Positions 7,351 to 50,400 of a stretch of DNA of 64,000 nucleotides are shown here, in pieces. The stretch lies in the IMG/VR virus record IMGVR_UViG_3300031539_000004, positions 64,696-128,695 of that record; one strand, given 5' to 3'. Made by a program: the position numbers and the translations under genes. Every line of letters begins with the position of its first letter. The first letter of the stretch is position 1. Under the pieces are notes generated by a model. It did not search any database, was not told the origin of the DNA, and saw only the letters and a program-made list of their open reading frames with translations. The DNA comes from a virus.

Positions 7351-7357
7351 CGGGGGG

Positions 7358-20355: not shown

Positions 20356-20389
20356 AGTATGGTCCCTCGGTGTAGCCGAAGCAACTACA
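20356..20389 (-). promoter_or_regulatory. Leaderless promoter with palindrome over -35
   Basis: TTGCTT-N17-CATACT; palindrome 20371-20389. Confidence 0.85.
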
Positions 20390-26158: not shown

Positions 26159-26372
26159 GCGGGGACCGTACCTCTGTTTGTCCACTCGATCGTTCCTTGA
26201 GGCAGTCGGGGCAGAGGTCGTCCAGCCCTGGCTTCGGTCGTCGCCATCCGGCCTCGAGGGCGAGGTCGCGGGCGGGGATGCAGCCAAGCGGCGATGACCG
26301 GCCGAAGCGTCGCCCGCACCCGTCGCACTGCGTTTCCCAGCGGCGCATGCCGCTCACCGCCCGACAGCTCAC
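26145..26372 (-). CDS. Small CxxC protein
   Basis: CDGC ... DLCPDC; coupled. Confidence 0.55.
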   Translation of the reverse strand: MSCRAVSGMRRWETQCDGCGRRFGRSSPLGCIPARDLALEAGWRRPKPGLDDLCPDCLKERSSGQTEVRSPHGIT

Positions 26373-26596
26373 GGCATCTGCGTGGTCGGGTCCGTCGCCT
26401 TCAGCCGGGTCCGTTCCTGCTCGGCGGCTCGGCCGGCGTACTCGGCGACGTGGGCGAGGGCGGTGTCGTCGTCGTCGGCGTGGAGCATGAACTCCTGCCG
26501 CATGATGCGGCGACCGGCGACGGGGCGACCGTCGGGTGAGCGGGCCACGGTGGTGACGTTGACCTCGATGCGGTACCGGGTGGATTCATCAGCCAT
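26369..26596 (-). CDS. Hypothetical protein, leaderless
   Basis: TACGGT-N7-ATG within palindrome 26606-26624. Confidence 0.65.
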   Translation of the reverse strand: MADESTRYRIEVNVTTVARSPDGRPVAGRRIMRQEFMLHADDDDTALAHVAEYAGRAAEQERTRLKATDPTTQMP

Positions 26597-26605
26597 GCCG
26601 GGGAC

Positions 26606-26624
26606 CGTAGCCTGCGAGGCTACG
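26606..26624. promoter_or_regulatory. YGTAG-N9-CTACR palindrome (overlaps -10)
   Basis: cgtag cctgcgagg ctacg. Confidence 0.8.
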
Positions 26625-26650
26625 CGCATCCAGCATCGGGCCAGAACGAC

Positions 26651-26683
26651 GAAAGGCCCCCGAGGCCCGAAGGCCCCGAGGGC
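26651..26683 (-). terminator. Intrinsic terminator of long RNA 1
   Basis: GCCCTCGGGGCC-TTCG-GGCCTCGGGGGC then CTTTC. Confidence 0.75.
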
Positions 26684-26979
26684 GGTCCGTGATGGCGAGG
26701 CGGTCACGCCGACCGAGATGCGACGCCGGGGGCAACCCAGCTTTGCGAACCCGATCCGGTTGTTCCTCACGTCCGGTGCTCCGCTCGACGCCAGTTGATC
26801 AGGCTGGCGGCGTCGGGCCGCGTGAGTCCCCTGGTGGTTTGTCCGGCACCTCGGCCGGCGTCACCGCCTCGCAGGTTGTGCTCACTCCCCGGCCCCGTCG
26901 GCCGCGGTTCGTAGTCGGTCCCAGCCTTGCGGCGTGCCGACCCGGCCCTTGGTCCTGTCGGGCGTGGTAGTGAGCTGAG

Positions 26980-27068
26980 TGCCACCGGGGGGAGTTGAAC
27001 CCCTGCCCGCCCCTCTCGGGGCGTCCCGGCCTCGGGGGCCGATCCGCTTCCGGCTGCCGTGCCGTGGC
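26980..27068 (-). other. tRNA-like element within long RNA 1 (no anticodon loop)
   Basis: GCCACGG/CGGTGGC-A acceptor, GGGG-TTCAACT-CCCC T-arm, GCCCC-GAGA-GGGGC arm, 5-nt loop arm. Confidence 0.55.
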
Positions 27069-28517
27069 GTGAGTGAGTGGTTGCAGCCCATCATCCGCCG
27101 GGGCCGAGCGGTCGCGCTTGGCGACTTCATTCCCGGGTTCGGGCTTCGCTGCTCCGCCACTCGGCGGCGTGGTTCTCGTATCACCTTCTCTCGCTCGTTG
27201 GTCGGTTTCGATTCTGGCGGCGCTGCTCGGCTCGAGGCCTGCTGCTGCTCGTTGCGAAGTCTGCTCCGGGGTTTATCTGAGGAGTCGGAGCGGCCCCCTC
27301 CCGGTCGCGATGCCGGGCCCGTTTGTTGTCGTTTGCCAGAAGGGGGCGGGTCTCCCCCCGACCGCTTCGCCGTATCCGGCTCGTCGGTGCTAGTCCGTGG
27401 CGGCGCTGCCTTGCCCCCGAGGGGGCCGGCGCTGCTCGCCTTGCGATTGCCCAGGGTTCCTCGTGGCAGCGAGGCCGACCGAGGAGCTCCTCGATCGGGC
27501 CAGCGGTTATCTCAGTTTCCCCGGTCGCTTGGTCTGCGATCCGGCACCCTCTCGGGTGGCTGGTCCCTACCTCATGGCCGCCCGTTGTGGGCGGCGCGTC
27601 ATTGAGTGGTTCAAGTGATCCGACCCCGTGGCCGCTGCTTCCAGCCGAGGCTGGGTATGCGGTTCGATCGTCGGGCTTGGCCGAGCTGGCTGCCACCAGC
27701 TCGACGCCTCCGTTTTACCCGCCGGTTACCCGGTTAGTGGGAGCCCCCGGTACTACTGACCGTTCCCGTGGGCTAGAGGTCCATCGCCGTCTGTTGCGCC
27801 TCGGCGAGTCGTTCGACTGGCCGAGGTTGTTGCGAGCTTGCCGGGGTTCGGTGGCTTGCGCCACCCGGTCCCGGCGACCGGTTCGGAGCGTCGTCGGCGT
27901 TGGCCTCTGCTCCTGTTCGGCAGCCTCGTTGTGAGTGTTCGCCCGAGGGGGTTTCCCTCAACCGGCGCAACGCTCCGGGGCTGCCTATGTCGGTTCCAGC
28001 TCACCGCGCTCCTCCCGCTATCCCGGCGCTGACGCTTCAAAGCTTTCATGCTTTCCGGGCTCGGGCGCTTCGGTGAGCTGTCCCGTAATCCTTCACCCCG
28101 AGGCTGCGTTGAGCCGTTCGGATCCCGCTCCGATTCGCCGAGGCTTACGCCTCGAGGTGGCTGATCGACGCTCAAGCGGGCCTCCCGCCGGTTGGCGGTG
28201 CTCGTTCTCGTTGGTTGCTCGGGTGCGCTGTGGGGGTGACTTGGCCTGCTGGCCTGACGCCACCCGCTCCGCTTTGCCTCACTCGCCCTGCCGGGCTCGT
28301 CCGTTAGTCGCTCCGGCGGGAGGCCCGCTTGAGCGTCGATCGTTGCTTTGTTCGCCGTGTCCGGCTGCGGTTGCTCCGCTGCCCGAGGCTTGCCCTCGTA
28401 GTCTCACCAGTTGGTCCGGTGCCGACCTTGCGCCGCTCGAGCCCTTATGGCTTCGGCCTCTCGGCCTGGCGACTCGCCCCGGGTCTTGTGGGGGCTTCCC
28501 GTCTTGCTTACGAGGAC

Positions 28518-28611
28518 AACGTAACTTCCCCGCTGTAGCCGAGTCAACTACAAAGAGGGGTTCCGAGGGAACAACGCCCTGACCAGCATCTATGTAGCCG
28601 AAGAAGCTACA
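28518..28611 (-). promoter_or_regulatory. Promoter of long RNA 1 with two palindromes
   Basis: TTGACT-N18-TACGTT; palindromes 28534-28552 and 28593-28611. Confidence 0.82.
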
Positions 28612-28634
28612 GCTCGGCGTGGGATCGCCGAGGA

Positions 28635-29417
28635 TCAGGCGTCGCTGGCGTCCTCGGGATCGCCCTCGGGCCGGCCCGGCCACAGGTCGGCGTAGGGGTG
28701 AGCGTCGCCCACGATCAACGCCTCGCCCTCGCACACGCCCGTCAGCGTGAGATCGACGTGCTCCCACGTCCACCACCCGCCGCACCGGTCGCAGCCCGCA
28801 CCAGCGCCGTCAGGGGCCTCTCGCAGGTCATGGCGCAAGGCGTCCAGCAGCGCCACGAACTCGGCGTGGCTGTCGACCCGCAGCCCCGGGTGGTCGCCGT
28901 TGTACGGCTGAGTGAACAGGACCGGCACCGTCTCGCCCATCGCCTCGAGCGCCTCGTAGTTGTCGACCGAGTCCTCGAGGAACACGTCGGTCTCGACCGC
29001 ACCCTTGTCGTGGCTCACCGTCACCGAGTCGAACGGGACCCCGAGCTCGCCGAGCCAAGCGAACGTCGACCGCCTGGCCGTCGCCTCCACCGTCGGGACG
29101 TTGCGCGACGTGACGAGGTGCAGCTCGTCGCCCGCCGAGGTGATCGCCAGCATCGCTTCCACCGCGCCCTCGATCGCCGGCGACGGCCCGAAGATCACGC
29201 CCGCCTCGATCCCGGCGACGAACTCGGCCATCCACTCCTCGGTCGTGAGGCCCCAGTCCTCCCGGTGGAACGACCAGACCGTCGGCTCGCCGAGCTCGGC
29301 CCGGTCATGGCCTCGGGAGACAAGCCAGTCGCGGAACCGGTCCACGAACGGGTAGAGCACCCCGTCTACGTCCATCCCCACCCTGAGCTTGTGACGCAGC
29401 TCATCCCCACCCGCCAT
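28635..29417 (-). CDS. HAD-family 5'(3')-deoxyribonucleotidase-like protein
   Basis: VGMDVDGVL, LVTSR, DVFLEDS, PVLFTQPYN. Confidence 0.8.
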   Translation of the reverse strand: MAGGDELRHKLRVGMDVDGVLYPFVDRFRDWLVSRGHDRAELGEPTVWSFHREDWGLTTEEWMAEFVAGIEAGVIFGPSPAIEGAVEAMLAITSAGDELHLVTSRNVPTVEATARRSTFAWLGELGVPFDSVTVSHDKGAVETDVFLEDSVDNYEALEAMGETVPVLFTQPYNGDHPGLRVDSHAEFVALLDALRHDLREAPDGAGAGCDRCGGWWTWEHVDLTLTGVCEGEALIVGDAHPYADLWPGRPEGDPEDASDA

Positions 29418-29494
29418 GCCAACCGAGCGTAGGCGCGCAACGACCCCGGGGTTCCGCGAAGGAACCACCGGGGCCGCCGCAACTGACCGCCAGG

Positions 29495-30346
29495 TCAGAG
29501 CTTGATACCGGGCTGCGGCGTGCCGTGGAAGGCCGTCATCTCGGTGGCTTCCTCGATCGCCGTCACGATGTCACCGAACGCTGACCGGAGCACCTCGCGG
29601 GGCCGGACCATCGCGTACCCGATCTGCAGCCGGCCCTCTCGGATCCGGTAGCGGAGCTGGCAGGTGACCCGGTACCGGTCGCTGCCCTCGTAGGGCGCGA
29701 CCCCGATCACGAACTCCTTCGGGATCGTGATGTCGCCCTTCTGGCCGGCCTTCGCCACGGTGGTCTCGTCGTACATGAGCTTCCGCTCGCCCGACTGGAG
29801 GACGATCGCCTCCTTGAACGCGACCGCCGTGTTGGCTTCGAAGGTGCGTGCCAGCTCCACCATCGTCGCCGCCTCGGGTTCCACGATCTCGAGCTGGCCG
29901 AGCTCGAGGTGCTCGGCGAACTCCTGCTGGCCCATGAGACCCCCGTCCTTGGCGGTCCAGCGGTCCCACTCGGGAGTGTGGCGCAGAGCGAGCGTCGCCG
30001 TGTGGTCATGCCACCCGGCGGTCTCCCCCTCGGGGACGTGCCCGTTGAGGACACCGATGACCTTCGACGCCTCGATGTTGGCGAAGAGCGCCGACCCGGG
30101 GCCGGCGTGCTCGTTGACGTACCTGCTCAGCGAGTCGTGGGTGTAGAAGATCGCCGGGCCGGTCTTGCGTGGCGGGGCGGCGGCCAGGCCGAGGGTGTTG
30201 ACCAGCTCGGTGCGGCCGTTCGCGACGACCATGAACACCTCGCCCGGTTCGACCTTGCGGGGGGCGACGGCCTTCTGTGCCTGCTCGATGATGGCCGCGG
30301 CGTCGCCTGCGGTGGCCTCGAGGATGTTCGTCGTCGGATCGCTCAC
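29495..30346 (-). CDS. DUF2303 (YfdQ-like) protein
   Basis: Family pattern FYTHDSLSRYV...LNGH...GWHDHTA...QQEFAEHLE; paired with upstream YfdP-like gene. Confidence 0.8.
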   Translation of the reverse strand: MSDPTTNILEATAGDAAAIIEQAQKAVAPRKVEPGEVFMVVANGRTELVNTLGLAAAPPRKTGPAIFYTHDSLSRYVNEHAGPGSALFANIEASKVIGVLNGHVPEGETAGWHDHTATLALRHTPEWDRWTAKDGGLMGQQEFAEHLELGQLEIVEPEAATMVELARTFEANTAVAFKEAIVLQSGERKLMYDETTVAKAGQKGDITIPKEFVIGVAPYEGSDRYRVTCQLRYRIREGRLQIGYAMVRPREVLRSAFGDIVTAIEEATEMTAFHGTPQPGIKL

Positions 30347-30717
30347 GATCCCACCTCCCTGATCTCCCCGGTCTCGGGGTCGACTTCCTTGTCTGGCGGC
30401 GGCGTGCTCACGTCACGGAGCGGCAGCCGGGGTTGCATCGGGTTGTCGCGGGAGAGGTTGCAGTCCTCGTCCACGAAGTAGAGCGACGGGTCGCGGTCGG
30501 CCTCGGGGAGCGTGACGGCGATCTTGTCCTTCACGATCACCATCTGCCCTTCGGGCTTCACCGAGATCGTGAGCGTCATCTTCCCGCTCTTGCCGGTGTC
30601 GGTCACCGCCTCGAGCAACGCGTTGAGCGCGTCGCCGAGCTCGAGGTGCGTCAGCCCGTTGCGCTGATCGGCCAGGAAGTCGGCGAATGGCCGAACCTGG
30701 CGGTCGGATTCTGGCAT
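30343..30717 (-). CDS. YfdP-like partner of DUF2303
   Basis: FADFLADQRNG...GKSGKMTLTISVKP...LSRDNPMQ. Confidence 0.75.
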   Translation of the reverse strand: MPESDRQVRPFADFLADQRNGLTHLELGDALNALLEAVTDTGKSGKMTLTISVKPEGQMVIVKDKIAVTLPEADRDPSLYFVDEDCNLSRDNPMQPRLPLRDVSTPPPDKEVDPETGEIREVGS

Positions 30718-30751
30718 GGTGGGTCCTCCTCTTTCTGTGGTTGTGGTGAGG

Positions 30752-31330
30752 TCAGGCCGGGTGGTGGACGAACTGGTCGATCATCGCCGCGTAGGCGCGC
30801 CACTCGGCGAGGTGCATGCGGGCGTCGTCCAGGCCCCGGTGGTTCTTGAGGTCGCCGTCGCCCGACTCGGGGACGAGGTCGCCTCGCCCGGCGAGCCACA
30901 GGCCGCGGCGGATGACGCCCACGTCGAGGTGCGGGTACTGGAGCCACGCCTCGAGGGTGGGCATCTGACGGTGAACGAACCGGCGATCGAAGTGCGAGAC
31001 GCCCGAGCCGGCCAGCAGCACCCGGTGAGGCTTCGCCCCGTTCGGCACGAGGACCGATTCGATGAGCATCGCCTCTACCTCGACCAGCGAGAGCGGCGAC
31101 CGCTCGACCGCCTCGAGCAGACCGTTCCCGGTGTGCATTTCGAGCACGAAGTCGTTCATCAGGTGAGCGACCGTCGCCGGGTAGTGGACGACCCCGCTGA
31201 ACTCGGAGAGCGTTTCGAACGGCGGGTCGACCCCGGTGAGGATCGATCCGACTTCAAGGATCTTGTCCTCGGCCTCGTCGGTGCCGGTGGTCTCCAGGTC
31301 AAACCAGAGGAGGTGCTTCGCTTCAGGCAT
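30752..31330 (-). CDS. orn: Oligoribonuclease-like DEDDh exonuclease
   Basis: LLWFDLETTG, VLEMHTGNGL, LAGSGVSHFDRRF, HLDV, HRGLDD. Confidence 0.85.
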   Translation of the reverse strand: MPEAKHLLWFDLETTGTDEAEDKILEVGSILTGVDPPFETLSEFSGVVHYPATVAHLMNDFVLEMHTGNGLLEAVERSPLSLVEVEAMLIESVLVPNGAKPHRVLLAGSGVSHFDRRFVHRQMPTLEAWLQYPHLDVGVIRRGLWLAGRGDLVPESGDGDLKNHRGLDDARMHLAEWRAYAAMIDQFVHHPA

Positions 31331-31339
31331 TCGCCGTCT

Positions 31340-31440
31340 CCTTTATCGGTGCCGGTGGACCGTAGCACCGCACCCGGAGTAGTTGCGGGTCCGTAGCCTT
31401 CGGAGCTACAGTCGTCGGGACCGCCAAACCAGGAGGAGCC
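31340..31440. promoter_or_regulatory. Divergent promoter region with palindrome 31392-31410
   Basis: cgtag ccttcggag ctaca; TACAGT rightward, TACGGT leftward; gene orientation switches here. Confidence 0.75.
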
Positions 31441-31443
31441 GAC

Positions 31444-31728
31444 ATGGCTGCGACACCCGGAAATGACAACTACTCGGCAGGGTTGGTACTCGCCGAGCTC
31501 GCCGACCATTGGGCGATCGGTGAGTGGATCACCGACGGAGCCCTCACGGTGATGCCGAGCGCCCAGCCGCGGTACGCCGCGCTGAGCACGGGCGAGAAGA
31601 ACATCGTGGACATCGCTTGGGCGATGCAGCAGGGCCGGTGGGACTTCCCGGTGGTGAAGGTGCTGGAGCTGGACTCGGGCTGGCGCGAGATCGTGATGGC
31701 AGCGATCTCGGCGCGGGTCCTCGCGTAA
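31444..31728 (+). CDS. Hypothetical protein
   Basis: RBS CAGGAGGAG. Confidence 0.7.
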   Translation: MAATPGNDNYSAGLVLAELADHWAIGEWITDGALTVMPSAQPRYAALSTGEKNIVDIAWAMQQGRWDFPVVKVLELDSGWREIVMAAISARVLA

Positions 31729-31737
31729 CCTCGCGGC

Positions 31738-32685
31738 ATGGGCACCAACGCCTTCAACGGTCAGGGGGATCCGTTCGGGTCCGGCTCGGTCGTGATCCCC
31801 GACGTTCCGACGCCGCTCGTCGCGTACCGCCAGTGGCAGGTCCAGTGGGGCCAGATCCCGGTTGAGGCTTCCGGGGCGTTCCCGTTCCCGGTTGGTGGCG
31901 ACTCGCGGCTCCAGTCGACGTACAACCACGGGGTGTGGGAGCCGGGTCGCGAGGCGCGGGCGGGGTGCCCGTGGTCGGACGGCGACCATCACCCCCAAGT
32001 GGTCGAGAATGGGATGATCCGGTTCCCGTTCGGGGTCCCGGCCCGGTACACCTATCCCGACCGCGACGTGTGCCGGGCGTGCCCGTCGCCGACGGCCGCG
32101 GGTCATGAGGGGTACGGCTGCGGGATCTACGGGTTCAAGCTGCCCGGCAAGCTTGCCGCCGAGTCGCCGCTGATCTCGAGGGCGTGGGGCCGGATCGAGA
32201 TGTGGGGCACCGTCTACGACCACGACTACGGCTACCGCGGGTCCCACGCCCGGGTGACCGGCATCGGCCTCCCCTTGGCCTTCGCCGATCGGAACGGGTG
32301 GGAGCTGGCGATGGTCGGGAGCCGCTCGAGTCAGCGCCACATGCTCGACTACCTCGCCGCCCTCTCGTTCCTGGCGCAGATCTACCGTGTGCCGCTTCTC
32401 AGGCCCCGCTCGGCGGTATCCGTCGAGGAGGTCTACCGGATGGCCTTAGCGGGCCGTGAGACGCCTGTCGTGGTCGATGAGGAGGTCGATCCGATCCATT
32501 ACGCCCGCGAGCTGATGGCGAACGGCTACGAACCGGATCTCGGTGCCCGAGCTCGGAAGCACCGCGAGGTCATGGAGCTGACCGCGGTCCAGTCGATGAG
32601 CGGCGAAGCGAACATGCGCCGGCTGATCGAGATGCTCCACCTCGACCCCGCCGACTTCGGCCTCGAGGACGACGATGGCGAGTGA
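31738..32685 (+). CDS. Hypothetical protein, paralog A (GCGxY...WG.V..H..GYR family)
   Basis: Clear similarity to next gene. Confidence 0.8.
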   Translation: MGTNAFNGQGDPFGSGSVVIPDVPTPLVAYRQWQVQWGQIPVEASGAFPFPVGGDSRLQSTYNHGVWEPGREARAGCPWSDGDHHPQVVENGMIRFPFGVPARYTYPDRDVCRACPSPTAAGHEGYGCGIYGFKLPGKLAAESPLISRAWGRIEMWGTVYDHDYGYRGSHARVTGIGLPLAFADRNGWELAMVGSRSSQRHMLDYLAALSFLAQIYRVPLLRPRSAVSVEEVYRMALAGRETPVVVDEEVDPIHYARELMANGYEPDLGARARKHREVMELTAVQSMSGEANMRRLIEMLHLDPADFGLEDDDGE

Positions 32686-33622
32686 CCCGTCGTCGCCGAT
32701 GTGGCCGCTCGACTTCGGCGAGGGGTTCCGGGTTCCTGATGTGCCCGAGCCGATCGTCGGCTACCGGTGGTGGGTGCGAGCTGGCGGCCAGGGCCACCCG
32801 CTGCTCCTCTCGCCGCGCACCCGCCTGCCTTGGCGTCCCGGCGAACCGACGCGAGCGTTCTGCGTTCCGGGTTCGCACAACGGTGGCCGCGACGCTGCGT
32901 GCTCGAGGTGCCCGTGCCCTGGCGACGCGGCGAACCACGACGGGTACGGGTGCGGCCTCTACGCCTACCGGTCGCTGAAGGCGTTGCTCCACGAGATCGA
33001 GTTCCCGACCCACAAGCTCGGCGTGTTCAATTCGGGCTGGCAGGTGGTGGTCGGTCAGGTCGAGCTGTGGGGCGACGTGTACGAGCATGTCAAGGGGTAC
33101 CGGGCGCAGTTCGCGAGGCCGTCGAAGCTGTTCGTCTATCCGCCGCCGGGGGATCATCAGTCGATCGATCCCGCGCTGATCGCCGAGCTCGCCGACGGGA
33201 TTGACATGGCCCCGTCGGCGCTCGAGCTGGTGACGATCGCGGCCGAGGTGAGGCGTGTGGCACCGGCTGATCTTGAGGCGTTGGGCGAGGTGTACGAGAT
33301 CCCGGTGGAGCCGTTCCCGATGTCGGCGGCCGAGGTGAACCGCGAGGTAGCGCAGTTCATGGCGTCGGTGTTCGCCGAGGTGAGGCGCTCCGCTGCGAGT
33401 CAGGTGCGAGCGTCGATGCCGGGCCGGCTCTCCGTGGTCGGCCACGTCGTCGGCCTGGTCGCCGCGTTGCTGTTCCTCGGATCGGACCTGGCGTCGGCCA
33501 GTTGGTTCGGGGTGGTGCTGTGGACGGCGATGGCCGGGATCTACCTGCACTGGCTCGTGAAGTACGGCGTGCGTCGGCGAGTGATCGGCGCGCTCGAGAT
33601 GGAGGAGGACGAAGATGGGTGA
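32675..33622 (+). CDS. Hypothetical protein, paralog B, with C-terminal transmembrane helices
   Basis: Similar to 31738-32685; two hydrophobic helices at C-term. Confidence 0.8.
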   Translation: MASDPSSPMWPLDFGEGFRVPDVPEPIVGYRWWVRAGGQGHPLLLSPRTRLPWRPGEPTRAFCVPGSHNGGRDAACSRCPCPGDAANHDGYGCGLYAYRSLKALLHEIEFPTHKLGVFNSGWQVVVGQVELWGDVYEHVKGYRAQFARPSKLFVYPPPGDHQSIDPALIAELADGIDMAPSALELVTIAAEVRRVAPADLEALGEVYEIPVEPFPMSAAEVNREVAQFMASVFAEVRRSAASQVRASMPGRLSVVGHVVGLVAALLFLGSDLASASWFGVVLWTAMAGIYLHWLVKYGVRRRVIGALEMEEDEDG

Positions 33623-33749
33623 GATCGGGAAGCCGATTCGGGAGGAACCGCTGGTGGTGCCAGCCCCGGCGACGGAGCCGGCGAGGCGCGAGCCGTCACC
33701 CGCGACGCCTTCGACGCCAGTCCCTGAGCGGGAACCGGTCTCGACGTGA
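33615..33749 (+). CDS. Small Pro/Glu-rich peptide MGEIGKPIREEPLVVPAP...
   Basis: RBS GAGGAC, overlaps upstream stop; 44 aa; not in supplied ORF track. Confidence 0.6.
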   Translation: MGEIGKPIREEPLVVPAPATEPARREPSPATPSTPVPEREPVST

Positions 33750-33849
33750 GCTGGGAACTGCTGGCCGGCGTCGGGGCTGTGGTGGCGCTCGGTTGTGGTG
33801 GTGGTCCGGTTCATCTGGCGGAATTGGCGCTGAGCTCGGGGGCGTTTCC

Positions 33850-33918
33850 GCTGGTCAGCGAGTTGTTCCCCGAGAACCCCCGTTTGTAGTTGATTCGGCT
33901 ACAGCGGTATGCCATGCT
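33850..33918 (+). promoter_or_regulatory. Promoter of long RNA 2 with palindrome over -35
   Basis: TTGATT-N17-CATGCT; palindrome 33885-33903. Confidence 0.82.
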
Positions 33919-34355
33919 GGTCCTCGTCGGGAAGCCCCCACATACCCGGCAAGCAAGTAGGGGCGAGTCGCAACAGCGGCGGGCAGCACCAGCCACCGGT
34001 GAGACCACCCGAGAGGGGGCAGGGGAGCCAACCCCGGCAGTAGCGAACAAGGCAGACCGAGGGGGAAGCCCTCGGAGCGCCGATCGCCTGGCGCTCGTAC
34101 CAAGTGAGGCGAACCGATCGAGAGCACCTTGATCGGGCTTGGCACCTCGGAGGTACCGCCCCGAAGTAACGCCAACGACTCCAGCCCTGACGGCTAACGA
34201 CCACGACTCACCCCTCGAGGTGAGCGACCCCTGAACGAAGGCTGGACGAGGTCGAAAAGGCAAAGCGAGTGAACGAGGAGAACGAGCCGAAGAACCCCGG
34301 ATGAGAACCACGGAGCTGCAGCGAAGTGGGGAGAGCATGGGGGTCGGAGGCTCGG

Positions 34356-34451
34356 GCCAAGCCCGATCAAGGTGCTCACGATCGGGAAGCTCGACCGGCC
34401 GCCTCGGTGGGCCGAGCGTCACAGACACGGGGTTCGAACCCCCGGCTAGGC
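34356..34451 (+). other. tRNA-like element within long RNA 2 (aberrant anticodon arm)
   Basis: GCCAAGC/GCTAGGC-A acceptor (6/7 bp), GATC/GATC D-stem with GG in loop, CGGGG-TTCGAAC-CCCCG T-arm. Confidence 0.55.
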
Positions 34452-35312
34452 ACGAGCAAGTGCCAACCTCCTTCGGCCCTGCCGCTCGGAGCGCCTCCCC
34501 GGCATGGGGTAGCGGAGACGGAACCAGATGCGACGCTCGCTCCACCGAGGCGGCTGGTCGAGAGCAGAGTCGGTGGCCCTCATGGGGTCATCGGGTCAGC
34601 GAGCTCAGGACTCGCCCGCAGTAATGCCCTCGGGAACACCGGGGGCCGTGGCCGAGCTGGAACCTCCTCCCCCTGCCGGTAACGCGGGCAGGGGCATGGG
34701 ACATGCCAGCGACGCTGCGAGGGCGGAGGAAATGGGAGCATGCCAAACCGGCCCGAGAGGGTGGGCAACACGCAAGCGGTGGCGAAGCCCTTCTAGAGCT
34801 GAGAGGTCGGCGTCGAGCGATCGGCGCAGCAGCGTAAACCCGGCGACGAGCCGGGGTGGTCGGCCTAGCATCGCAACCCCGGTGAACCCATGAAGGTCAC
34901 CGACTCGAGCTGCTACGCCAGCGTCGGACCCGACTCGGGGGCGGCGACTTCAGCGAACCGATCCAAGACCAAGTAGGCCGGCGACTCCCCTCCGGGGCGA
35001 GCGCCGACGAACGTGCGGACACCGGTCGACTCGGAGCGCCACCGCGAGGGAGACCGGTGAAGGGGTGGCTGGCTGAGGAACCTCCCCCAAGAGGGCCCCG
35101 GCGTGCGCGGTTGAGACAACCCAAGCGTCGGGAAGCGGTACCAAGGAACACGGCTAAGTAGTCCAGCCGGTGAGGGGGCCGGGAGCGAGTGATCGCCCGG
35201 GTGTGATGAGCATGGGAGACGGCCAGCGAGCAGGCCCGATGGATACGTCTGGCCGCGCTCAACACCTCCCACCGAAGCTCCTCGGGGCCGGCGTTGGCGT
35301 AGCAGCTCGAGG

Positions 35313-35343
35313 GGCCCTCGGCTTCGGCCGGGGGCTTCTTCTC
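35313..35343 (+). terminator. Intrinsic terminator of long RNA 2
   Basis: GGCCCTCGGC-TTCG-GCCGGGGGCT then TCTTCTC; resembles RNA 1 terminator. Confidence 0.75.
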
Positions 35344-35392
35344 GTTCCGGGGTTCCTGTTCCGTGGCCCTCGGCTGGAATAGGCTGGCCCGC

Positions 35393-36475
35393 ATGGATCG
35401 CCAGATCATCACCGACACCTCCCGCGTTTCGCCCGGATCGGTGCCCGAGCAGCGGCTGCTGGCGAAGCTCATGGCCGACGGGTACGCCCACATCCGAACC
35501 GGGTCCTGCGACTCGCCGGTCGATCTCACCGAGGTCCGACCCGTGCTTGAGAAGGCCTTCGGGGCCGCCGCGGTCGAAGCCGAGGGGTGCGGCGGCGGAA
35601 CGTCGCTCCTCCTCGAGGACGGCGGCGGGGTGTTGTGGGTCGAATACTCGCCGCGGTGGCACGAGTGGCATTGGGCCGTCGCGTCGAACCTGGCGTCGAA
35701 CACCGAGCGGTGGGCCGCCGCGATGACCGGGATGCTCCCCCCGTTCGAAGCGGTCAGCGACGACGGTCGGCTCTACACGAACTTTTGGGCGAAGCACCCG
35801 ATGGCCGGCGGGTACTCGTATCTGCGGCCGATCGAGGTCCAGGGCTGGTCGGAGATCGCCGGGAACTACCCCGAGTCGGTCCGGGCCGAGCTCGGGAAGC
35901 TCGTCACGATGCGCGACCCGGGGGCTGGCGGCAAGCTGGTGCTCCTTCATGGGCCGCCGGGTACCGGCAAGACCCGGTCGATCATGGCGCTCCTGGCCGC
36001 GTGGCGCGAGTGGTGCGAGCCGCACGTCATCACCGACCCCGACTCGTTCTTCAACCACCTCGACTACATGAACGACGTGATCCTCGGCGGCGGCTTCGAT
36101 GACGGCCGGTGGCGGGTGCTCATCGTGGAGGACGGCGACGAGTTCATGGACGTCGACGCCAAGAGTCGAACCGGGCAGGCGCTCAGCCGGCTGCTCAACC
36201 TCGGCGACGGGATCGTCGGCCAAGGGCTGAACGTGCTGACCATCATCACGACGAACGTCGAGATGGGTTCGCTGAATCCGGCGGTGGCGAGGACGGGGCG
36301 TTGCATGACGAACCTCCACTACCCTGCCTTCGACCAGGCCGAGGCCGAGTCGTGGCTGGCTTCCCGCCAGCTCGAGGGTGTCGAGGTTCCCGAGGACGGG
36401 ATGACGCTGGCCGATCTGTACGGGGCGAAGCGTCGCTCCGACCATCTGGCCGACGTGCTCGGCCGATTCGACTGA
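35393..36475 (+). CDS. AAA-family ATPase (DUF5925-like), paralog A
   Basis: LVLLHGPPGTGKT, LIVEDGDE, LSRLLNLGDGIVGQG, IITTN. Confidence 0.85.
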   Translation: MDRQIITDTSRVSPGSVPEQRLLAKLMADGYAHIRTGSCDSPVDLTEVRPVLEKAFGAAAVEAEGCGGGTSLLLEDGGGVLWVEYSPRWHEWHWAVASNLASNTERWAAAMTGMLPPFEAVSDDGRLYTNFWAKHPMAGGYSYLRPIEVQGWSEIAGNYPESVRAELGKLVTMRDPGAGGKLVLLHGPPGTGKTRSIMALLAAWREWCEPHVITDPDSFFNHLDYMNDVILGGGFDDGRWRVLIVEDGDEFMDVDAKSRTGQALSRLLNLGDGIVGQGLNVLTIITTNVEMGSLNPAVARTGRCMTNLHYPAFDQAEAESWLASRQLEGVEVPEDGMTLADLYGAKRRSDHLADVLGRFD

Positions 36476-36486
36476 GGAGAACCGAC

Positions 36487-37581
36487 ATGGCCGAGGTCAC
36501 GCTCACGCTGCCGGTGACGAACACGTCACCCGCGGGGGTCCCGCTGGACCGCATCAACGCTGCGATCGCCGCCGGCGAGTTCGAGCTGGTGCGAGCGCAC
36601 CGCTTCTACTCGCTGACGCCGTGGGACGACGTGAAGACGTTCATCTCCAGGGTCGCGACGGTGAAGTACGAGGCCAGCATCGGCTACGAGACGACGCTCC
36701 TCGCCGAGACCGAGGACTCGGTGATCGCCCTGTCGTGCGAGTGGGGCGACGAGTGGACGCTGATCTGCGCGGTCCGCGCCGACGCTCGAGCGCAGAAGTG
36801 GATCGCGTCGATGGCGTCGATGCTCCCCGAGCCGCCTCCCCCGCCGCCGCCGCCACCGCGTCCCGACAACATGGTGCCGGTCATGTTCTGGATGCAGAAC
36901 CCGATGACCGGTGGCGCGTACGCTCGCCGCCGCGACATCGAGGTCCAGAAGTTCGAGGACGTCGCCGAGAACTACCCGGCCTCGACCCGCGCCGAGCTCG
37001 CCGAGCTCATGGCGCTCGAGGAGCCGGGGGCCGGCGGGAAGCTCGTGCTGTTCCACGGCCCTCCGGGGACCGGGAAGACGCGGGCGATCCTGTCGCTGAT
37101 CTCGGAGTGGCGTGACTGGTGCGCCGCTTCGGTGGTGACCGACGCCGACCGGTTCTTCGGCGACCCGACGTACCTCAACGACCTGCTCTTCGACTCGGCT
37201 GGCCGCAAGGACTGGCTGCTGCTGGTCATCGAGGACGGCGACGAGTTCATGAACGTCGGGTCCCGAGAGTCGAAGGGCCAGGACGTCGCCCGGCTGCTGA
37301 ACGTGGCCGACGGCATCATCGGCCAGGGCCTCAACGTCCTGACGTTGATCACCACGAACGTGGCGATGGACGAGCTGAACCCGGCGGTCGTGAGGACCGG
37401 CCGGTGCATGTCGAATCTGCAGTTCCCGGGGTTCGGCGAGGGCGAGGCCGCGGAGTGGCTCGAGGCCCACGGGGTCGACTACTCGGACGAGGATCTCGGC
37501 GGTTCGACCTTGGCCGAGCTGTACGAGCTGGTGCGCCGGACCGAGCGGGCGCAGAAGGCTCTGGCCCGTTTCGCCGACTAG
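36487..37581 (+). CDS. AAA-family ATPase (DUF5925-like), paralog B
   Basis: LVLFHGPPGTGKT, LVIEDGDE, ARLLNVADGIIGQG. Confidence 0.85.
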   Translation: MAEVTLTLPVTNTSPAGVPLDRINAAIAAGEFELVRAHRFYSLTPWDDVKTFISRVATVKYEASIGYETTLLAETEDSVIALSCEWGDEWTLICAVRADARAQKWIASMASMLPEPPPPPPPPPRPDNMVPVMFWMQNPMTGGAYARRRDIEVQKFEDVAENYPASTRAELAELMALEEPGAGGKLVLFHGPPGTGKTRAILSLISEWRDWCAASVVTDADRFFGDPTYLNDLLFDSAGRKDWLLLVIEDGDEFMNVGSRESKGQDVARLLNVADGIIGQGLNVLTLITTNVAMDELNPAVVRTGRCMSNLQFPGFGEGEAAEWLEAHGVDYSDEDLGGSTLAELYELVRRTERAQKALARFAD

Positions 37582-37598
37582 CCGGCGTCCTTGCTGCC

Positions 37599-37617
37599 TG
37601 TAGCTTCGCAGGCTACG
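37599..37617. promoter_or_regulatory. YGTAG-N9-CTACR palindrome (overlaps -10 TACGAT)
   Basis: tgtag cttcgcagg ctacg. Confidence 0.8.
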
Positions 37618-37646
37618 ATCCACCGGTACCCGACAACCGGAGGAAC

Positions 37647-38372
37647 ATGATGAGCGGACAACTGCCCGACGCCGACGAGGCGCGCCGACAGGTGCTGAAT
37701 GAGGTCGCCCTCGAGGACGGCACGGTGCTGGTGAAGGGCGACGAGATCCATGCCCAAGGCGAGCCGGGTGCGACGTTCAAGTTCATCCACCTCGCGATCT
37801 CGCCTGATGGGTCGAGCCGGTGGGTGTCCTGCTACGGCGGCACGAAGGGCCGGGGGATGCATCGGGCGTTGCGACCCGAGAAGATCCGGGTCAAGAAGGG
37901 CACGAAGGCGGTCAAGATCGGCGACCCGACCGGCGAGGCTGCCGAGGAGTTCGTCGCTGAGGCCCCGCCCGAGGAGGAGGCTCCGGTCACCGAGACCGTC
38001 GAAGCCCCGCCCGAGGTCGCGCCGGAAGCTCCACCCGAGGCCCCGCCAGCGGAACCGGCCGACGAACCGGAGGTCGAGGAGCTGAAGGGCGAGGACTTCG
38101 AGGAGGCGGTGAAGCCGAAGCGTCGACCCGACAAGGCCGCCAAGGAAGGCGCGCTCGCCGAGGCGATCGCCGCTGGCCGGATCAAGGCGGGCACCGAGCT
38201 GCACCACGGCGAGTACCGCGGGGTCGTCACAGCGTCGGGGCACGTCGAGGTGGCCGGTGAGACCTACAACTCGCCGAGCACCGCAGCGAAGAACGCCGCG
38301 GGTCGCCAGTCGGCGAACGGGTGGGACTGGTGGAAACTCCCGAGCGGCGAGAAGCTCCAGACGGTCAGATGA
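37647..38372 (+). CDS. Protein with C-terminal RAMA domain and acidic Pro-rich linker
   Basis: GRIKAGTELH...VTASGHVEVAGETYNSPSTAA...NGWDWW. Confidence 0.75.
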   Translation: MMSGQLPDADEARRQVLNEVALEDGTVLVKGDEIHAQGEPGATFKFIHLAISPDGSSRWVSCYGGTKGRGMHRALRPEKIRVKKGTKAVKIGDPTGEAAEEFVAEAPPEEEAPVTETVEAPPEVAPEAPPEAPPAEPADEPEVEELKGEDFEEAVKPKRRPDKAAKEGALAEAIAAGRIKAGTELHHGEYRGVVTASGHVEVAGETYNSPSTAAKNAAGRQSANGWDWWKLPSGEKLQTVR

Positions 38373-44543: not shown

Positions 44544-46616
44544 ATGCCGCGATCCGAACGGCTGCGACGCCGACCCCGAACCTCGATGAGCGCCAGGGGC
44601 GGCCGCACCTTCCAGATGATGCACCCCGACCGCTCGGCGAGCGCGCACTCATCGGCGGTGGTCCGGCTGAAGGACTGGAAGGTCCCCGATACCGGGATCG
44701 GTGAGGCGTGGCAGCGGGAGGCTTACGGGTACGCCGACGTGATCGGCGAGCTCGGCTATGTGGTGAACCTCACCGCCAACACGGTCGGCGAGGGGAACGT
44801 GATCCCGTCGGAGTGGGATGAGGAAGCTCGGGCGTACAAGCCGACCGAGGACGAACGGGTCCGTCGGGTGTGGCGGGCGTTCGTGGGGCCTCGGGGCGGC
44901 CAGGCCGAGCTGCTCCGCAAGGCCGCGATCCACATGCAGACCGCCGGCGAGAGCTACCTCGTCGGCACCCCGTTGAAGACCGACCGGAGCCAGTACGGCG
45001 GCCTCGAGTGGGAGTTCCTGTCGACCGAGGAGATCCGAGTCGAGGGCCTGACCGGCAAGCGGACGATCAAGCGGAACCGGGCGGGACGCGGCACCGACGG
45101 CGGGTACGTCACCGTCGAGGCGTTCGTGACCCGCATGTGGAACAGCGACGCCCGGTACAGCGACCGGGCCTACTCGATGGTGAAGCGCAACCTGCCGATC
45201 TGCCGGGAGATCGTGGTTCTGACGCAGGTGGTCGACGCCATCGCGAAGTCTCGGCTGGCGGCCGGGATCCTGTTCGTCCCCGACGAGATGAGCTTCGGCC
45301 CCGAGGACGAGAAGGAAAACCCGGGCGACGACACCGATGACATCGATGAGTTCACGCAGGAGCTGCTCGAGCATCTGCAGGCTCCCGTCGATGACCGGAC
45401 GTCCGCGGCGTCGCTGGTCCCGCTGATCCTCCGGGGCGCGGCCGAGCTCGGCAAGGAGGTGCGGCTGATCGAGGTCGCCCGCGATCTGGACCGGCTCTAC
45501 CAGGACCTTCGCCAGGAGGCGATCGGTCGGCTTGGTGGCGGGCTCGACATCCCGCCCGAGGTCATGGCCGGCAAGTCGGGGCTGAATCACTGGACCGGGT
45601 ACAACATCGACGCCGAGTACGTCACGAAGCACGTCGTGCCGCTCGCCGGCGGGATCCTCGACTTCATCACCGAGGCGTACATGCGCCCGATGTTGAAGAC
45701 GTTCGAGGACATGACCGCCGCCGAGGCTGGCCGGTTCTCGCTCCGCTATGACCCGTCGCCGATTATGAAGCGGGCCGATTCGGGGCCGTCCGCTCGGGCC
45801 GCGTACGACCGGATCGGTGTGTTGTCGGGTGAGGCGTACCGCCGCGAGAACGGGTTCGATGAGGCCGACAAGCCTGATGACGAGGAGACCCGCCGGCGGT
45901 TGCTCGAGGAGATCCTGCTGCGCCGGCCGCTCGAGATGGCCCCGATCATCCTGCCGCTCCTGTACCCCGACGAGGATCTGTCGGGCTTCCCCGAGGTGAT
46001 CGTCCCGGTGAACGAGGTCGGCCAGGGCAGCCCCGCGCTGACCCCGGGCGGCGGCGACGCTCCGGTTGGCGATCTCGAGGACGGCCAGGACGAACCGGTC
46101 CCGATCGAGGCCGACGCCAGCGTGGGAACCGACATGCCTGCCGCCGAGCGCGAGCTGATCGACCGGCTCGCCACCGCCGCGGACGCTGCGCTGGAGCGGG
46201 CGCTCGAGAAGGCAGCGAACCGGATCCTGTCGAAGCTGAACGGGCGCGACAACGAGCCGCTCCGTGACCAGCTCAAGTCCCTCGATCGGCACGAGGTGTT
46301 CGGGTCGACGCCTTCGTCGGTGCTGACCGGCATCAGCGAAACGCCGGCCGGGCTGATGATCGGCGCGTGGGACACGTTCGCCGACAAGTCGAAGGGCTGG
46401 ATCCGGGCGTACATGATCGAGGCGGGGGTGGAGACGTACCTCGCAGACGACCAGGCCGACCTGATCACCCGTGAGCTGGTCGAGATGCTCGAGGTCCACG
46501 CGATGTCGGCGACTCGCCGCCCGTTGCGGGTGGGCGAGAACGGGCTGCGGGTTCCGAATGAGCTGGTCGAGCGGGCGATGGAAGCCTCTCGGTCTGTGCA
46601 GCTCGCGGGGGTCTGA
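44544..46616 (+). CDS. Portal protein
   Basis: WQREAY...GELGYVVN, GESYLVG, SRLAAGILFVPDE; position before head morphogenesis and protease genes. Confidence 0.8.
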   Translation: MPRSERLRRRPRTSMSARGGRTFQMMHPDRSASAHSSAVVRLKDWKVPDTGIGEAWQREAYGYADVIGELGYVVNLTANTVGEGNVIPSEWDEEARAYKPTEDERVRRVWRAFVGPRGGQAELLRKAAIHMQTAGESYLVGTPLKTDRSQYGGLEWEFLSTEEIRVEGLTGKRTIKRNRAGRGTDGGYVTVEAFVTRMWNSDARYSDRAYSMVKRNLPICREIVVLTQVVDAIAKSRLAAGILFVPDEMSFGPEDEKENPGDDTDDIDEFTQELLEHLQAPVDDRTSAASLVPLILRGAAELGKEVRLIEVARDLDRLYQDLRQEAIGRLGGGLDIPPEVMAGKSGLNHWTGYNIDAEYVTKHVVPLAGGILDFITEAYMRPMLKTFEDMTAAEAGRFSLRYDPSPIMKRADSGPSARAAYDRIGVLSGEAYRRENGFDEADKPDDEETRRRLLEEILLRRPLEMAPIILPLLYPDEDLSGFPEVIVPVNEVGQGSPALTPGGGDAPVGDLEDGQDEPVPIEADASVGTDMPAAERELIDRLATAADAALERALEKAANRILSKLNGRDNEPLRDQLKSLDRHEVFGSTPSSVLTGISETPAGLMIGAWDTFADKSKGWIRAYMIEAGVETYLADDQADLITRELVEMLEVHAMSATRRPLRVGENGLRVPNELVERAMEASRSVQLAGV

Positions 46617-47476: not shown

Positions 47477-50400
47477 ATGGCAGACCAGCTCGATCTCCTC
47501 GACCCGCTGCAGTCGCAGGAAATCCTCGACGCCGTGCGGGTTCTTGCCCGCTCCGACGCGTCGAAGATGGTCCTCGATGCGCTCACCGCTTCGTCAGCGG
47601 ATCCCTCCGACGGGATGCCCGACATCGATCCGGTCGAGGTCAACCTGCGAGAGGCCGGCGTCGGCGCGGTCGACTACTGCGGGAAGTGCCGGTTCTGGCA
47701 GCCGCCCGGCGAGCTCGCCGACAGTGAGTTCGTGACCGGGACCTGCGCGATCGTGACCGGGGACATCGACTACCAGGACGTCTGCGATCTGTACGAGGAA
47801 CGTGTGACCGCCGGCGACGGCGAGCTGCCCGAGGCGGCCGGGACGCAGATCCCGAACCCCGGCGACGGCATGGGGGAACCCGATGACGACGGCGACGGCC
47901 CCACGCCGGGGGGGGAGGTCGATGGACCGGCTCCGACGATCGAGGGGGACAACGCCTCGACGGTGGCCGAGGTGTTCGGCGACGAGTTCTGGCGCGAGTA
48001 CCAGGAAGAGGACGAGCACGGCGGGGTGATCGTGACCGTCGAGCCGACCCCCGAGCAGAAGCAGGCGCTCGAGCAGCCCGGCGGTATGCCGGCCGACCAG
48101 CTCCATTTGACGCTGGCGAAGATCGATGGTGTCGACAATGACGCTGCCGCCACGGAGGTACTCGGGGTGCTCCTCGAGCTCGCCGCCGAGTACCCGGCGT
48201 TCTCGGGTGAGGTCGCCGGCACCGGCGCTCTCGGCGAGCGCCAGTGGGGCGTCGCTCTGGTCGACGCGGAAGATCTCGGGCTGCTGCGGAGCGAGGTGAT
48301 CGAGGCGCTAGTCGACGCCGGAATCATGGTCTCCGACGACCACGACTTCATCCCACACATCACGCTCACCGAGGGTCCCATCCCGGCCGACGCTGCGATC
48401 GTGGGCCTACCATTGACGTTCGACAGTCTCGTCCTTCGGGTCGGCTCGCAGGTCATCGCAGTTGGGATGGATGGCCCGGCCCCCGCCGATGAAGTGGATG
48501 TCGAGGAGGAACCCGTGGCACCGACCATGACCGAACCCGAAGCCCCCGAAGACGCTCCGATGGAGCCTGCCCCCGCTGAGGGCGAGGCTGCCACGATGAG
48601 TATCGATGACCGCCAGGAGCGGATCCGTCGCGCGCTGCGCCAGATGAGCCTCGATGACCGCGAGATGCTCCGCAGCCAGCTCGAGGTGCCCGCCGACGAG
48701 CCGATGGTGGCCGCCGGGACCGACGCCGAGCTGGTCGAGGACTCCGGTGCCCCGCCGCCCGAGGTCGCGCCCGTCGAGGAGCCGGCCGAGGCCGACACCG
48801 ACGGCGAGGAGATCGCCGAGCTCGAGACCGAGGTGTTCGGCGCGATCGCTCCGCACGACACGCCCACCTCCGACGACGCGTGGGACGGACCCGAGAACGA
48901 CGTTCGGGTGAGCTCGCCGAACGATCCCGACTACTTCGACGCGGTCTACGCGTGGCGCGACGACGACGGGGATCTCGATGTGAAGGCCGCCTACCGGTTC
49001 ATCCACCACTTCGTGAGCGAGTCCGGCGACCCGGGAGCGGCTTCGACGGTGGCGTGCTCGACCGGCATCGGCGTTCTGAACGGCGGCCGCGGTGGGACGA
49101 CCATCCCGGGCGACGACCGGCAGGGCGTCTACGACCATCTCGCCGCGCACCTGCGCGACGCCGACATGGAGCCGCCCGAGCTCATGTCCGACGAGGAGGC
49201 CGCGCTGGTGGCGCGTGCCCACGAGTCGGGCGTCCAGATCAACCCCGCCGACCCGGATTCTGTCCGGTCGGCTCTCGAGCACACGATCTTGGCCGATGAG
49301 GCCGAGGCGGCGCTCGCAAAGGCTGAGGAGGCCGACGTGGTGGACCTGACCGACATCGAGGATTCGGCGCTGCTCACCGAGCTGGCCCGCAGGGTGCTTC
49401 TCGAGGCCGCTGACGGGGTTGCGGCCGCCGAGGCCGCCGAAGGCGACGACACGGCCGCTGAGGGCGTCGAGATGGCCGAGGACGGCGACGCTCCCGAGGT
49501 CGAGCCAGAGGTCGAGGACGTGGTGGTCGGCGAGTTCGATGACGGCGACCAGGACTACGACTGGACCGGCATCATCATCGTGGAAGGCCTCCCCTCGGGG
49601 GATGGCCGGATGGTCGCCGAGGGCGGGCTGACGTGGCGCGAGTTGCCGCTGCCGCTCATGCTGCAGACGGTGAACGCCCCGGGCCACGAAGGCTCCGAGA
49701 TCGCCGGCTCGATCCACAAGCTCGAGCGGCGCGGCCAGGACATCCTCGGGTGGGGCAAGTTCGACTCGGGCAAGGCTGGCACCGAGTACCGCCGGCTCCT
49801 CACCGAGAAGACCATGCGGGGCGTGTCGGCCGACATCGACTCCGTGAAGGTCGAGTTCCGTGACCCCGAGTCGGGCGACTCGATCGACCCGGCCGACCTG
49901 CTCTTCGGTGACCCGATGATGGAGGTCATGGAGGTGCTCACCGAGGGCCGGATCATGGGCGCGACGGGGACCCCGTTCCCGGCGTTCCAGGAGGCCCACA
50001 TCGAGCTGATCGGCGCTGCCATCGAGGACGAGGCGCTGGTCGCTTCCGCCGCGTGGATCACCGAGACGACCGGCAACGCGTTCGCCTTGGCTGGCGACGG
50101 CTACCGGGTCTACACCCCGATCGAGCAGGCACCGTGGGTGCTGCGCGGCGAGGAGCCGGTGTCGCTGGTCGCTTCGGCCGGCGAGTCGCCCGAGCTCGAG
50201 ATCCCGATGCATCCGTCGCTCGAGTGGTTCGCTCCGACGAACACGGTGGAGCCGTTCACGGTCCACGCCGATGGGCGGATCACCGGGCTGCTCGCCAAGT
50301 TCGGGACGTGCCACATCGGCCGCTCCGACCGGTGCATCCCGGTGCCCACCTCCCGCGACGGGTACAGCCACTTCCGCAACAAGAAGGTGCTGAGCGCCGA

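Follow-up and report, generated by a model that had tools for sequence, protein, structure and literature searches.

Within 64,000 nucleotides (nt) of IMG/VR virus record IMGVR_UViG_3300031539_000004 (positions 64,696 to 128,695; this whole stretch is hereafter the window, and corresponds to G000:C2:62807-126390, that is, to part of contig C2 of assembly G000), two long tracts poor in open reading frames (ORFs) raise the question of what they encode. The first, RNA1, occupies window positions 28511-26645 on the minus strand and the second, RNA2, positions 33926-35345 on the plus strand, and an earlier note made from the sequence had proposed that they are a paralogous pair of giant non-coding RNAs. 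We found that RNA2 contains a ~270-nt core module that represents a new, covariation-supported and apparently undescribed phage RNA family, whose members probably pair with copies of themselves.

The ORF-poor character of the two tracts was borne out by composition as well as by gene calls. Third-position GC periodicity is lost in 26650-28570 and 33900-35250 (maximum minus minimum of 0.03-0.15), whereas the flanking genes give values of 0.3-0.6, and the sense strands of both RNAs are strongly and strand-specifically richer in A than in U (A52/T15 in RNA2 34170-34349; A9-13/T45-49 for RNA1 when read on the plus strand). Both tracts are gene-free in the gene calls of an identical Joint Genome Institute (JGI) contig, and no conserved translated ORF came to light, as the nine longest ORFs within the tracts gave no Pfam match. 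Four segments spanning RNA1 and RNA2 have folding z-scores of -5.8, -6.6, -10.2 and -5.9 relative to dinucleotide shuffles. Both tracts are probably genes for long, highly structured non-coding RNAs with phage promoters of their own and UUCG-capped ends.

RNA2 is a composite of a ~130-nt 5' domain, the ~270-nt core, an element resembling a transfer RNA (tRNA) and a structured extension of ~890 nt. Two of its parts are:

34114-34385, plus strand: conserved core module, with closing helix P1 (34114-34143 paired with 34356-34385; 30 bp), an invariant 20-mer (34187-34206), the P5 hairpin, the strand GCGAYCCCTGAAYGAAGG and P6 (34308-34329).
34315-34322, plus strand: palindromic 8-mer GCTGCAGC in the P6 loop, a candidate intermolecular kissing site.

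Relatives of RNA2 came from several searches. With a two-block pattern taken from the 5' domain that RNA1 and RNA2 share, we identified true relatives on three contigs from soil metagenomes. One metagenomic locus, L189 (identical to L196), is a non-coding tract of ~1.5 kb that has another promoter, a 5' domain that is 91% identical, two copies of the internal unit and a T-arm, and another, L201, is a ~550-nt version ending in a terminator. In L189, one full and one partial copy of the core stand in tandem (L189:2146-2270 and 2400-2658, minus strand), both with a GUGCGCAC loop. Two other candidate sets were discarded as chance matches: 11 matches of the two-block pattern in genome contigs, and at least 114 matches of the 14-mer GGGAAGCCCCCACA in IMG/VR, the latter as judged by BLAST.

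An exact 20-mer, CTGACGGCTAACGACCACGA, is common to RNA2, L189, L196 and L201. Searched for alone, it identified 22 IMG/VR contigs of 6-167 kb and GC content 0.54-0.72, which have ~270-400 nt around the 20-mer in common and from which the 5' domain is absent. We call the core phage-borne because a search of 400 other genomes in the phylum did not turn up the 20-mer. BLASTN with a lower-GC member, L216, as query returned 206 records, all of them cluster C mycobacteriophages; only with that member as query did these copies come to light. In Phabba (at 2,960-3,314, between gp008 and gp009) and Dandelion (from ~23,225, between gp70 and gp71) the element sits in unannotated intergenic gaps, and in other records it lies under 'hypothetical protein' calls. 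A covariance model scored 57-85 bits at every complete locus and 35 bits in one contig that cuts the core off, and model R1 matched RNA2 34178-34246 with 80.1 bits (E 2e-23). RNA2 has the arrangement by which we define the family, namely the invariant 20-mer followed by hairpin P5 and GCGAYCCCTGAAYGAAGG, all within helix P4.

Homolog searches with larger parts of the RNAs, as the earlier note had suggested, came back empty, and it was the RNA2 core for which relatives were found, in IMG/VR, metagenomes and mycobacteriophages. BLASTN found no match for RNA1 or for the first 535 nt of RNA2 among 50,697 phage records, nor for RNA2 among plasmids, and RNA1 DNA gave chance-level matches only against 60 related genomes. 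The proposal of a larger, possibly undescribed RNA class held in that the class is undescribed, but the class itself is really the ~270-nt core: in the lineage of the window the core is embedded in much longer predicted transcripts, while elsewhere the RNA is predicted to be as short as ~0.4-0.55 kb.

The structure of the core was derived from 17 non-redundant sequences, aligned with MAFFT and folded to a consensus with RNAalifold. Helix P1, of 23-32 bp, is present in 17/17 sequences with a sequence specific to each lineage, and compensatory changes occur at 24/24 of its aligned pairs. RNAalifold predicted 62 pairs, 51 of them with compensatory changes. For a 59-pair structure, 87.9% of cells are paired, compared with 62.3% in column shuffles (0/500 reach the observed value) and 35-42% with slid partners; double changes affect 50/59 pairs, and the covariation score is 0.645 versus 0.19. 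Inside P1 lie P2, P3 and then P4, with P6 as a separate hairpin after them, and P4 encloses a large internal loop that holds the 20-mer and GCGAYCCCUGAAYGAAGG, both almost invariant, together with the length-variable hairpin P5. G-U pairs are frequent in P3, and therefore pairing occurs on this strand only, as RNA. Covariation among homologs, a check proposed in the earlier note, is strong for the RNA2 core, and the predicted secondary structure that it shows is a junction of several helices, with two invariant single strands, that one long helix closes.

These observations bear on whether the tracts are functional at all. They might instead be genes in decay, or elements that work at the DNA level, for example as origins or for packaging; in favour of this, the same phage has another non-coding region, 3.8 kb in length, which is rich in short tandem repeats and has a DNA-level look. 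We consider this alternative highly improbable, and for RNA2 it is largely refuted by the compensatory changes with strand-specific G-U pairs and by the conservation of the core over phages of such different GC content. The dedicated promoters and terminators, the extreme folding z-scores and the lack of protein similarity also argue against it, as does a 107-nt segment of the RNA2 3' part (35122-35228) that is 100% identical in a relative in which overall identity is ~86% and whose adjacent AAA protein is 85% identical to that of the window.

The loop of P6 suggests how the core may behave. It consists of purines, an 8-mer and purines again (GGA-GCUGCAGC-GAA in RNA2, 34312-34325), and the 8-mer is a perfect palindrome in 14/17 sequences, in four variants: GUGCGCAC, GUGGCCAC, GCUGCAGC (window) and GCGGCCGC. 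Adjacent nucleotides cannot pair in one chain, and covariation of the palindrome is therefore a sign that one copy of the RNA pairs with another. For OLE L9.3 and GOLLD L21a, Kretsch et al. applied the same palindrome reasoning, and there the contacts were shown by cryogenic electron microscopy (cryo-EM) (PMC12286853). By this reasoning, the core probably pairs with copies of itself.

We therefore asked which known RNAs the family resembles. In the whole window, cmscan at gathering score gave 0 matches, and the families listed for checking in the earlier note (GOLLD, ROOL, OLE, HEARO, introns, transfer-messenger RNA (tmRNA), RNase P and YrlA) were all negative; GOLLD, ROOL, OLE, HEARO and raiA gave no match in 26300-35600 or 33900-35360 even at E up to 10. 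Rfam 15 holds no model for the core module, and its only match among 18 homologous loci is to a tmRNA in L209. A prior description of the core RNA was not found in the literature, which is not proof of absence. The window RNAs share with GOLLD (RF01998) that they are large (>800 nt), ornate and encoded by phages or prophages, but they differ in being about twice as long and in a core that is a single junction closed by a 23-32-bp helix. GOLLD often occurs in tRNA arrays and can hold an internal pseudo-tRNA (PMC6582537), and it self-assembles through kissing loops with covarying palindromes, while ROOL forms RNA-only multimers (PMC12286853). ROOL (RF03087) is likewise a large phage-borne RNA near tRNA islands with no protein partner; unlike ROOL, the present RNAs have no Rfam match and their hosts are actinophages, including cluster C mycobacteriophages.

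We favour, with a probability of about 0.6, a structured RNA that acts in trans and associates with itself, akin to GOLLD and ROOL, and whose tRNA-like parts serve as processing points or mimics. On this view the core would be an independent RNA and not a gene-specific leader, and contacts between covarying palindromic P6 loops would bring its copies together as dimers or larger complexes, in the way of GOLLD and ROOL. The long transcript would be cut or marked at its tRNA-like elements, which would serve as sites of RNase P/Z processing or mimic tRNA.

How the two RNAs are expressed also bears on their mode of action. Both are preceded by a 23-nt motif, TGTAGTTGAYTCGGCTACAGCGG, that occurs five times in the window (0 expected) and eight times on contig C2, and 0 times elsewhere in the 3.9-Mb assembly. 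It comprises a TGTAG-N9-CTACA palindrome overlapping a TTGAYT -35 box, and its eight-copy form is TGTAGTTGnnTCGGCTACA. The signals are as follows:

10450-10472 (minus), 20367-20389 (minus), 28530-28552 (minus), 33885-33907 (plus) and 54343-54365 (plus), with C2:27053, 35058 and 43558: copies of the phage promoter/operator motif.
28518-28552, minus strand: RNA1 promoter, with the palindrome-containing motif, -35 box TTGACT (28547-28542), an 18-nt spacer and -10 box TACGTT (28523-28518).
33885-33918, plus strand: RNA2 promoter, with the same motif, -35 box TTGATT (33890-33895), a 17-nt spacer and -10 box CATGCT (33913-33918).
26645-26682, minus strand: RNA1 terminator as read from the sequence, with an 11-bp stem, a UUCG loop (26682-26657) and a U-containing tail.
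35314-35346, plus strand: RNA2 terminator, with a 9-bp stem, a UUCG loop (hairpin 35314-35335) and the tail TTCTTCTCGTT.

Six of the eight motif copies are followed by a -10-like hexamer, then 6-7 nt, then ATG, and these appear to drive leaderless mRNAs. The copies at 28552-28530 (minus) and 33885-33907 (plus) have no start codon downstream and head RNA1 and RNA2, with transcription starts that we place, from the spacing, near 28511 and 33926. The claim that both tracts have promoters with no start codon after them is thus supported by the eight-copy motif, while a generic sigma-70 scan of 26300-35700 found no promoter. Both UUCG-capped terminators that had been described are visible in the sequence as GC-rich hairpins, and a terminator scan flagged that of RNA2 and not that of RNA1. 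The promoter motif is also found twice on a related IMG/VR fragment, L160.

This layout invites the alternative that the RNAs, or the 5' domain together with the core, act in cis on their own transcript, by influencing terminator resistance, stability or translation of the operon, with the UUCG hairpins as regulated attenuators. RNA1 and RNA2 head divergent gene arrays that extend from ~26.6 to 7.4 kb (minus) and from 35.4 to 51 kb (plus), the AAA start codon follows the RNA2 terminator after only ~50 nt, and the part that RNA1 and RNA2 share is exactly the promoter-proximal 170 nt. At L213, L214 and L216, a -35/-10 pair ends 4-7 nt ahead of P1, as would suit a leader, although with such a promoter these members also look like self-contained genes; a promoter abutting P1 was rejected as a general rule, being clear in 3/17 loci only. 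The HK022 put and lambda nut sites, elements of ~70 nt, offer a precedent in that two related RNA elements lie just after promoters heading opposite phage operons, with terminators following, but they do not pair with themselves and the likeness is one of placement, no relation in sequence being known. Known antitermination RNAs measure ~70-120 nt, compared with 270-1900 nt here, and action purely in cis would leave the covarying palindrome without a role. L201, L214 and L216, in which a terminator-like hairpin is visible by eye soon after the module, look like stand-alone terminated genes. The downstream genes, moreover, belong to no common family, which argues against a gene-specific riboswitch. 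Overall, we regard a cis-acting leader as unlikely.

Some observations nevertheless weigh against the trans-acting reading. Long same-strand gene arrays follow both RNAs with no promoter motif nearby (the next copies are at 20389 and 10472 on the minus strand and at 54343 on the plus strand), and read-through of the terminators is therefore likely. In L205, L206, L211, L215 and L217 an ORF with a ribosome-binding site begins 18-45 nt past the closing helix, which fits a cis-acting leader, and the palindrome could instead be bound by a protein or paired with a different partner. The RNA1 and RNA2 transcripts are predictions from the DNA sequence, and RNA1 has no outside homolog past its first ~170 nt, so that the evidence for its body consists of composition, folding z-scores and context.

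The trans-acting reading gains from the gene neighbourhood. Among 18 loci and 68 flanking ORFs, no recurrent protein family was found beside the module, and for this reason we consider the core not to be gene-specific. The suggestion that the RNAs act with neighbouring paralogous protein pairs or with an exonuclease was for the same reason not borne out. The order RNA, AAA(DUF5925), RAMA is retained only in two close relatives. Downstream of RNA2, tandem AAA(DUF5925) ATPase paralogs that are 44% identical (35393-37581 and 37119-38372) are followed by a RAMA-domain protein, and this AAA/AAA/RAMA trio is conserved downstream of the RNA in the P0005 contig and in L203. On the contig of the closest relative of the AAA protein (59% identity), the 840 nt upstream are free of genes. 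A search for related loci with the AAA and NT5C-like proteins returned nothing, and the 315-residue protein encoded upstream is nearly an orphan.

To what extent the two RNAs are themselves a pair depends on which of their parts are compared:

28344-28511, minus strand: RNA1 5' domain, homologous to that of RNA2, with blocks GGGAAGCCCCCACA, GGGGCGAGTCGC, GGTGAGAC and GCGAACAAAGCA.
33926-34056, plus strand: RNA2 5' domain, common to RNA1 and the metagenomic RNAs L189 and L201.
28163-28341, minus strand: RNA1 long-range helix, a perfect 29 bp (28341-28313 with 28191-28163) enclosing ~120 nt.
34453-35313, plus strand: RNA2 3' extension, highly structured.
26979-27068, minus strand: RNA1 tRNA-like element, with T-loop TTCAACT, acceptor GCCACGG/CGGTGGC with one G-G mismatch, A73 and no CCA.
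34428-34452, plus strand: RNA2 T-arm, CGGGG-TTCGAAC-CCCCG, followed by acceptor 3' strand GCTAGGC and A73.

BLAST between RNA1 and RNA2 gave one significant alignment, which spans the promoter and the first ~170 nt (66% identity over 265 columns, E 6e-17), and all other similarities were at chance level. Of six colinear blocks described in the earlier note, the first four fall within this alignment, the fifth is a chance match by BLAST (E 3.8), and the sixth, the T-arm, received indirect support from ARAGORN and from weak matches to the mascRNA model. The consensus fold of the 5' domain has compensated changes at 3/20 pairs, from too few sequences. The 29-bp stem of RNA1 and a 30-bp stem in RNA2 are both real, and the RNA1 helix region is not significantly similar to the RNA2 module. 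The core was not detected in RNA1, either by an nhmmer profile or by a P4-P5 covariance model with filters off, and was found in RNA2 only; treated as 'mini-modules', the 29-bp-stem region of RNA1 and the conserved 3' region of RNA2 gave local alignment scores no higher than shuffles (z 0.5, 1.0 and -0.3). Because the core is confined to RNA2 and the mini-modules fail against shuffles, we consider the two RNAs homologous in their heads and tRNA-like pieces and not in their bodies. The notion of a paralogous pair therefore applies to the promoter, the ~170-nt 5' domain and the tRNA-like element: RNA1 is a diverged relative of RNA2 that has kept these parts and lacks the core.

The tRNA-like elements suggest a further alternative. 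ARAGORN reported 26979-27068 (minus) in RNA1 as a 90-nt tRNA-Arg(CCG), but the Rfam tRNA model (RF00005) gave no match to it even at E up to 10; it is not a canonical tRNA. In RNA2, possible 5' partners for GCTAGGC are GCCTGGC at 34086, which encloses the module, and GCCAAGC at 34356. The minimum-free-energy fold pairs GCCUGGC (34086) with GCUAGGC (34445), adjoining a canonical 5-bp T-stem and 7-nt T-loop with A73, and a 7-bp acceptor stem can be drawn for RNA2 34086-34452, with a G-U pair at 5:68 and not G3-U70, and with no encoded CCA. For both T-arm regions the best Rfam match is the mascRNA model (RF01684), at 19-21 bits against a gathering threshold of 42.5. MALAT1 and MEN-beta are eukaryotic long non-coding transcripts with an embedded tRNA-like RNase P/Z processing signal. 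The likeness to mascRNA lies in this embedding of a tRNA-like element in a long non-coding RNA, and is an analogy only, because the scores are far below threshold and the system is eukaryotic.

If RNA2 34086-34452 folds in the manner of tmRNA, the RNAs may be mimics or decoys for ribosomes, tRNA enzymes or tRNA-targeting defence nucleases. Like tmRNA (RF00023), this ~367-nt segment has an acceptor-type stem and T-arm around a long helix, and a conserved single strand in its body bears GCU-AAC-GAC, which recalls a resume codon with the start of a tag. The GCCUGGC/GCUAGGC pairing beside a canonical T-arm and the tRNA-like ARAGORN call in RNA1 are in keeping with this proposal, but neither Rfam nor ARAGORN called a tmRNA in the window, and there is no G3-U70, no CCA and no consistent tag. 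In the family sequences, frames from the invariant GCU end after 7 to >25 codons with unrelated C-termini, and none of the resulting peptides has a tmRNA-type hydrophobic tail. Most family members, in addition, have no T-arm or other tRNA-like domain after the module.

Two phages do carry predicted tmRNA genes or a tmRNA-type domain next to the module. In L221, ARAGORN predicts a tmRNA gene shortly downstream on the same strand, with a typical tmRNA 5' end and a T-arm/acceptor 3' end by eye; the module profile, however, matches neither this tmRNA nor any other part of the host assembly. In L209, ARAGORN likewise predicts a tmRNA gene downstream on the same strand, of which Rfam backs an 83-nt tmRNA-type tRNA-like domain alone (L209:10219-10301, minus; 57.7 bits, model ends only), ~1 kb from the module; this domain, which stands alone, could be the minimal remnant of a tmRNA or else an acceptor piece. 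Genes for translation and RNA repair are also found nearby. Phabba encodes an RF-1-like protein and a nucleotidyltransferase upstream of the element, and the window encodes an NT5C/HAD-family protein. In the window, a 1188-residue protein (47477-51043) has a 2'-5' RNA ligase (LigT) family domain at residues 200-307, and on a 33-kb metagenomic contig (L202:1076-9547) an AAA(DUF5925) homolog lies amid Thg1, RlaP, WhiB, PNKP (HAD_PNKP and AAA_33) and T4-type RNA ligase 1 (Rnl1). For the favoured trans-acting reading, the repeated presence of tRNA, tmRNA and RNA-repair genes nearby hints at a role in translation or in host defence directed at tRNA. As the primary function of the RNAs, we hold mimicry to be less probable still than a cis-acting leader.

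The genome that carries these RNAs is that of a phage. Contig C2 (126,390 bp, GC 0.69) encodes a large terminase (window 1875-3590), a portal protein (44544-46616), a head-tail adaptor, an endolysin, a DnaB-type helicase and many DNA methyltransferases, and its portal is ~27-32% identical to those of cultured actinophages. It is a near-complete genome of a novel actinophage and not a chromosomal region, and was binned with a 3.9-Mb bacterial assembly; by this binning, the bacterium of the bin is the putative host. An identical 21-kb stretch is present on a 111-kb JGI soil contig, and metagenome DNA contigs of four runs contained the same phage and one L189-type relative. The same phage occurs in soil and marine-sediment metagenomes from several studies. 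Right after the large terminase gene, the 3.8-kb stretch mentioned above (window 3590-7358) lacks codon periodicity, is C-rich on the minus strand and is dense in short tandem repeats (period 10-13, 2-6 copies, 28 rows in Tandem Repeats Finder); with folding z-scores of only -3.8 and -1.1, it resembles an iteron-type region that works at the DNA level, as an origin or in partition or packaging, more than a third giant RNA. A further 2.3-kb gap without high-GC3 ORFs lies beyond the window on the same contig (G000:C2:39554-41852).

Collectively, the finding is real and reaches well past the window, which holds two kilobase-scale composite representatives. Large ornate RNAs of bacteria and phages, such as GOLLD, ROOL, OLE and raiA, are few, and some build RNA-only cages, as seen by cryo-EM; to these the present work adds a covariation-backed family of such RNAs in phages, absent from Rfam 15, that bears the same signature of intermolecular pairing. 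The family can be studied at once by deletion, expression and structural experiments, since it occurs in over 200 sequenced cluster C mycobacteriophages, which are grown on Mycobacterium smegmatis. A more far-reaching and tentative possibility is that the core is the unit from which phage RNA particles of a new, self-assembling kind are built, that it is fused here to a tRNA-like handle, with tmRNA-like topology, and to kilobase extensions, and that the RNAs act on host translation or tRNA surveillance and not on a phage protein. If so, no dedicated structured non-coding RNA known from a phage would exceed RNA1 and RNA2 in size. The window presents the most extreme form of the family, predicted non-coding transcripts of 1.4 and 1.9 kb with tRNA-like elements, and links large phage RNAs once again to tRNA and tmRNA biology.

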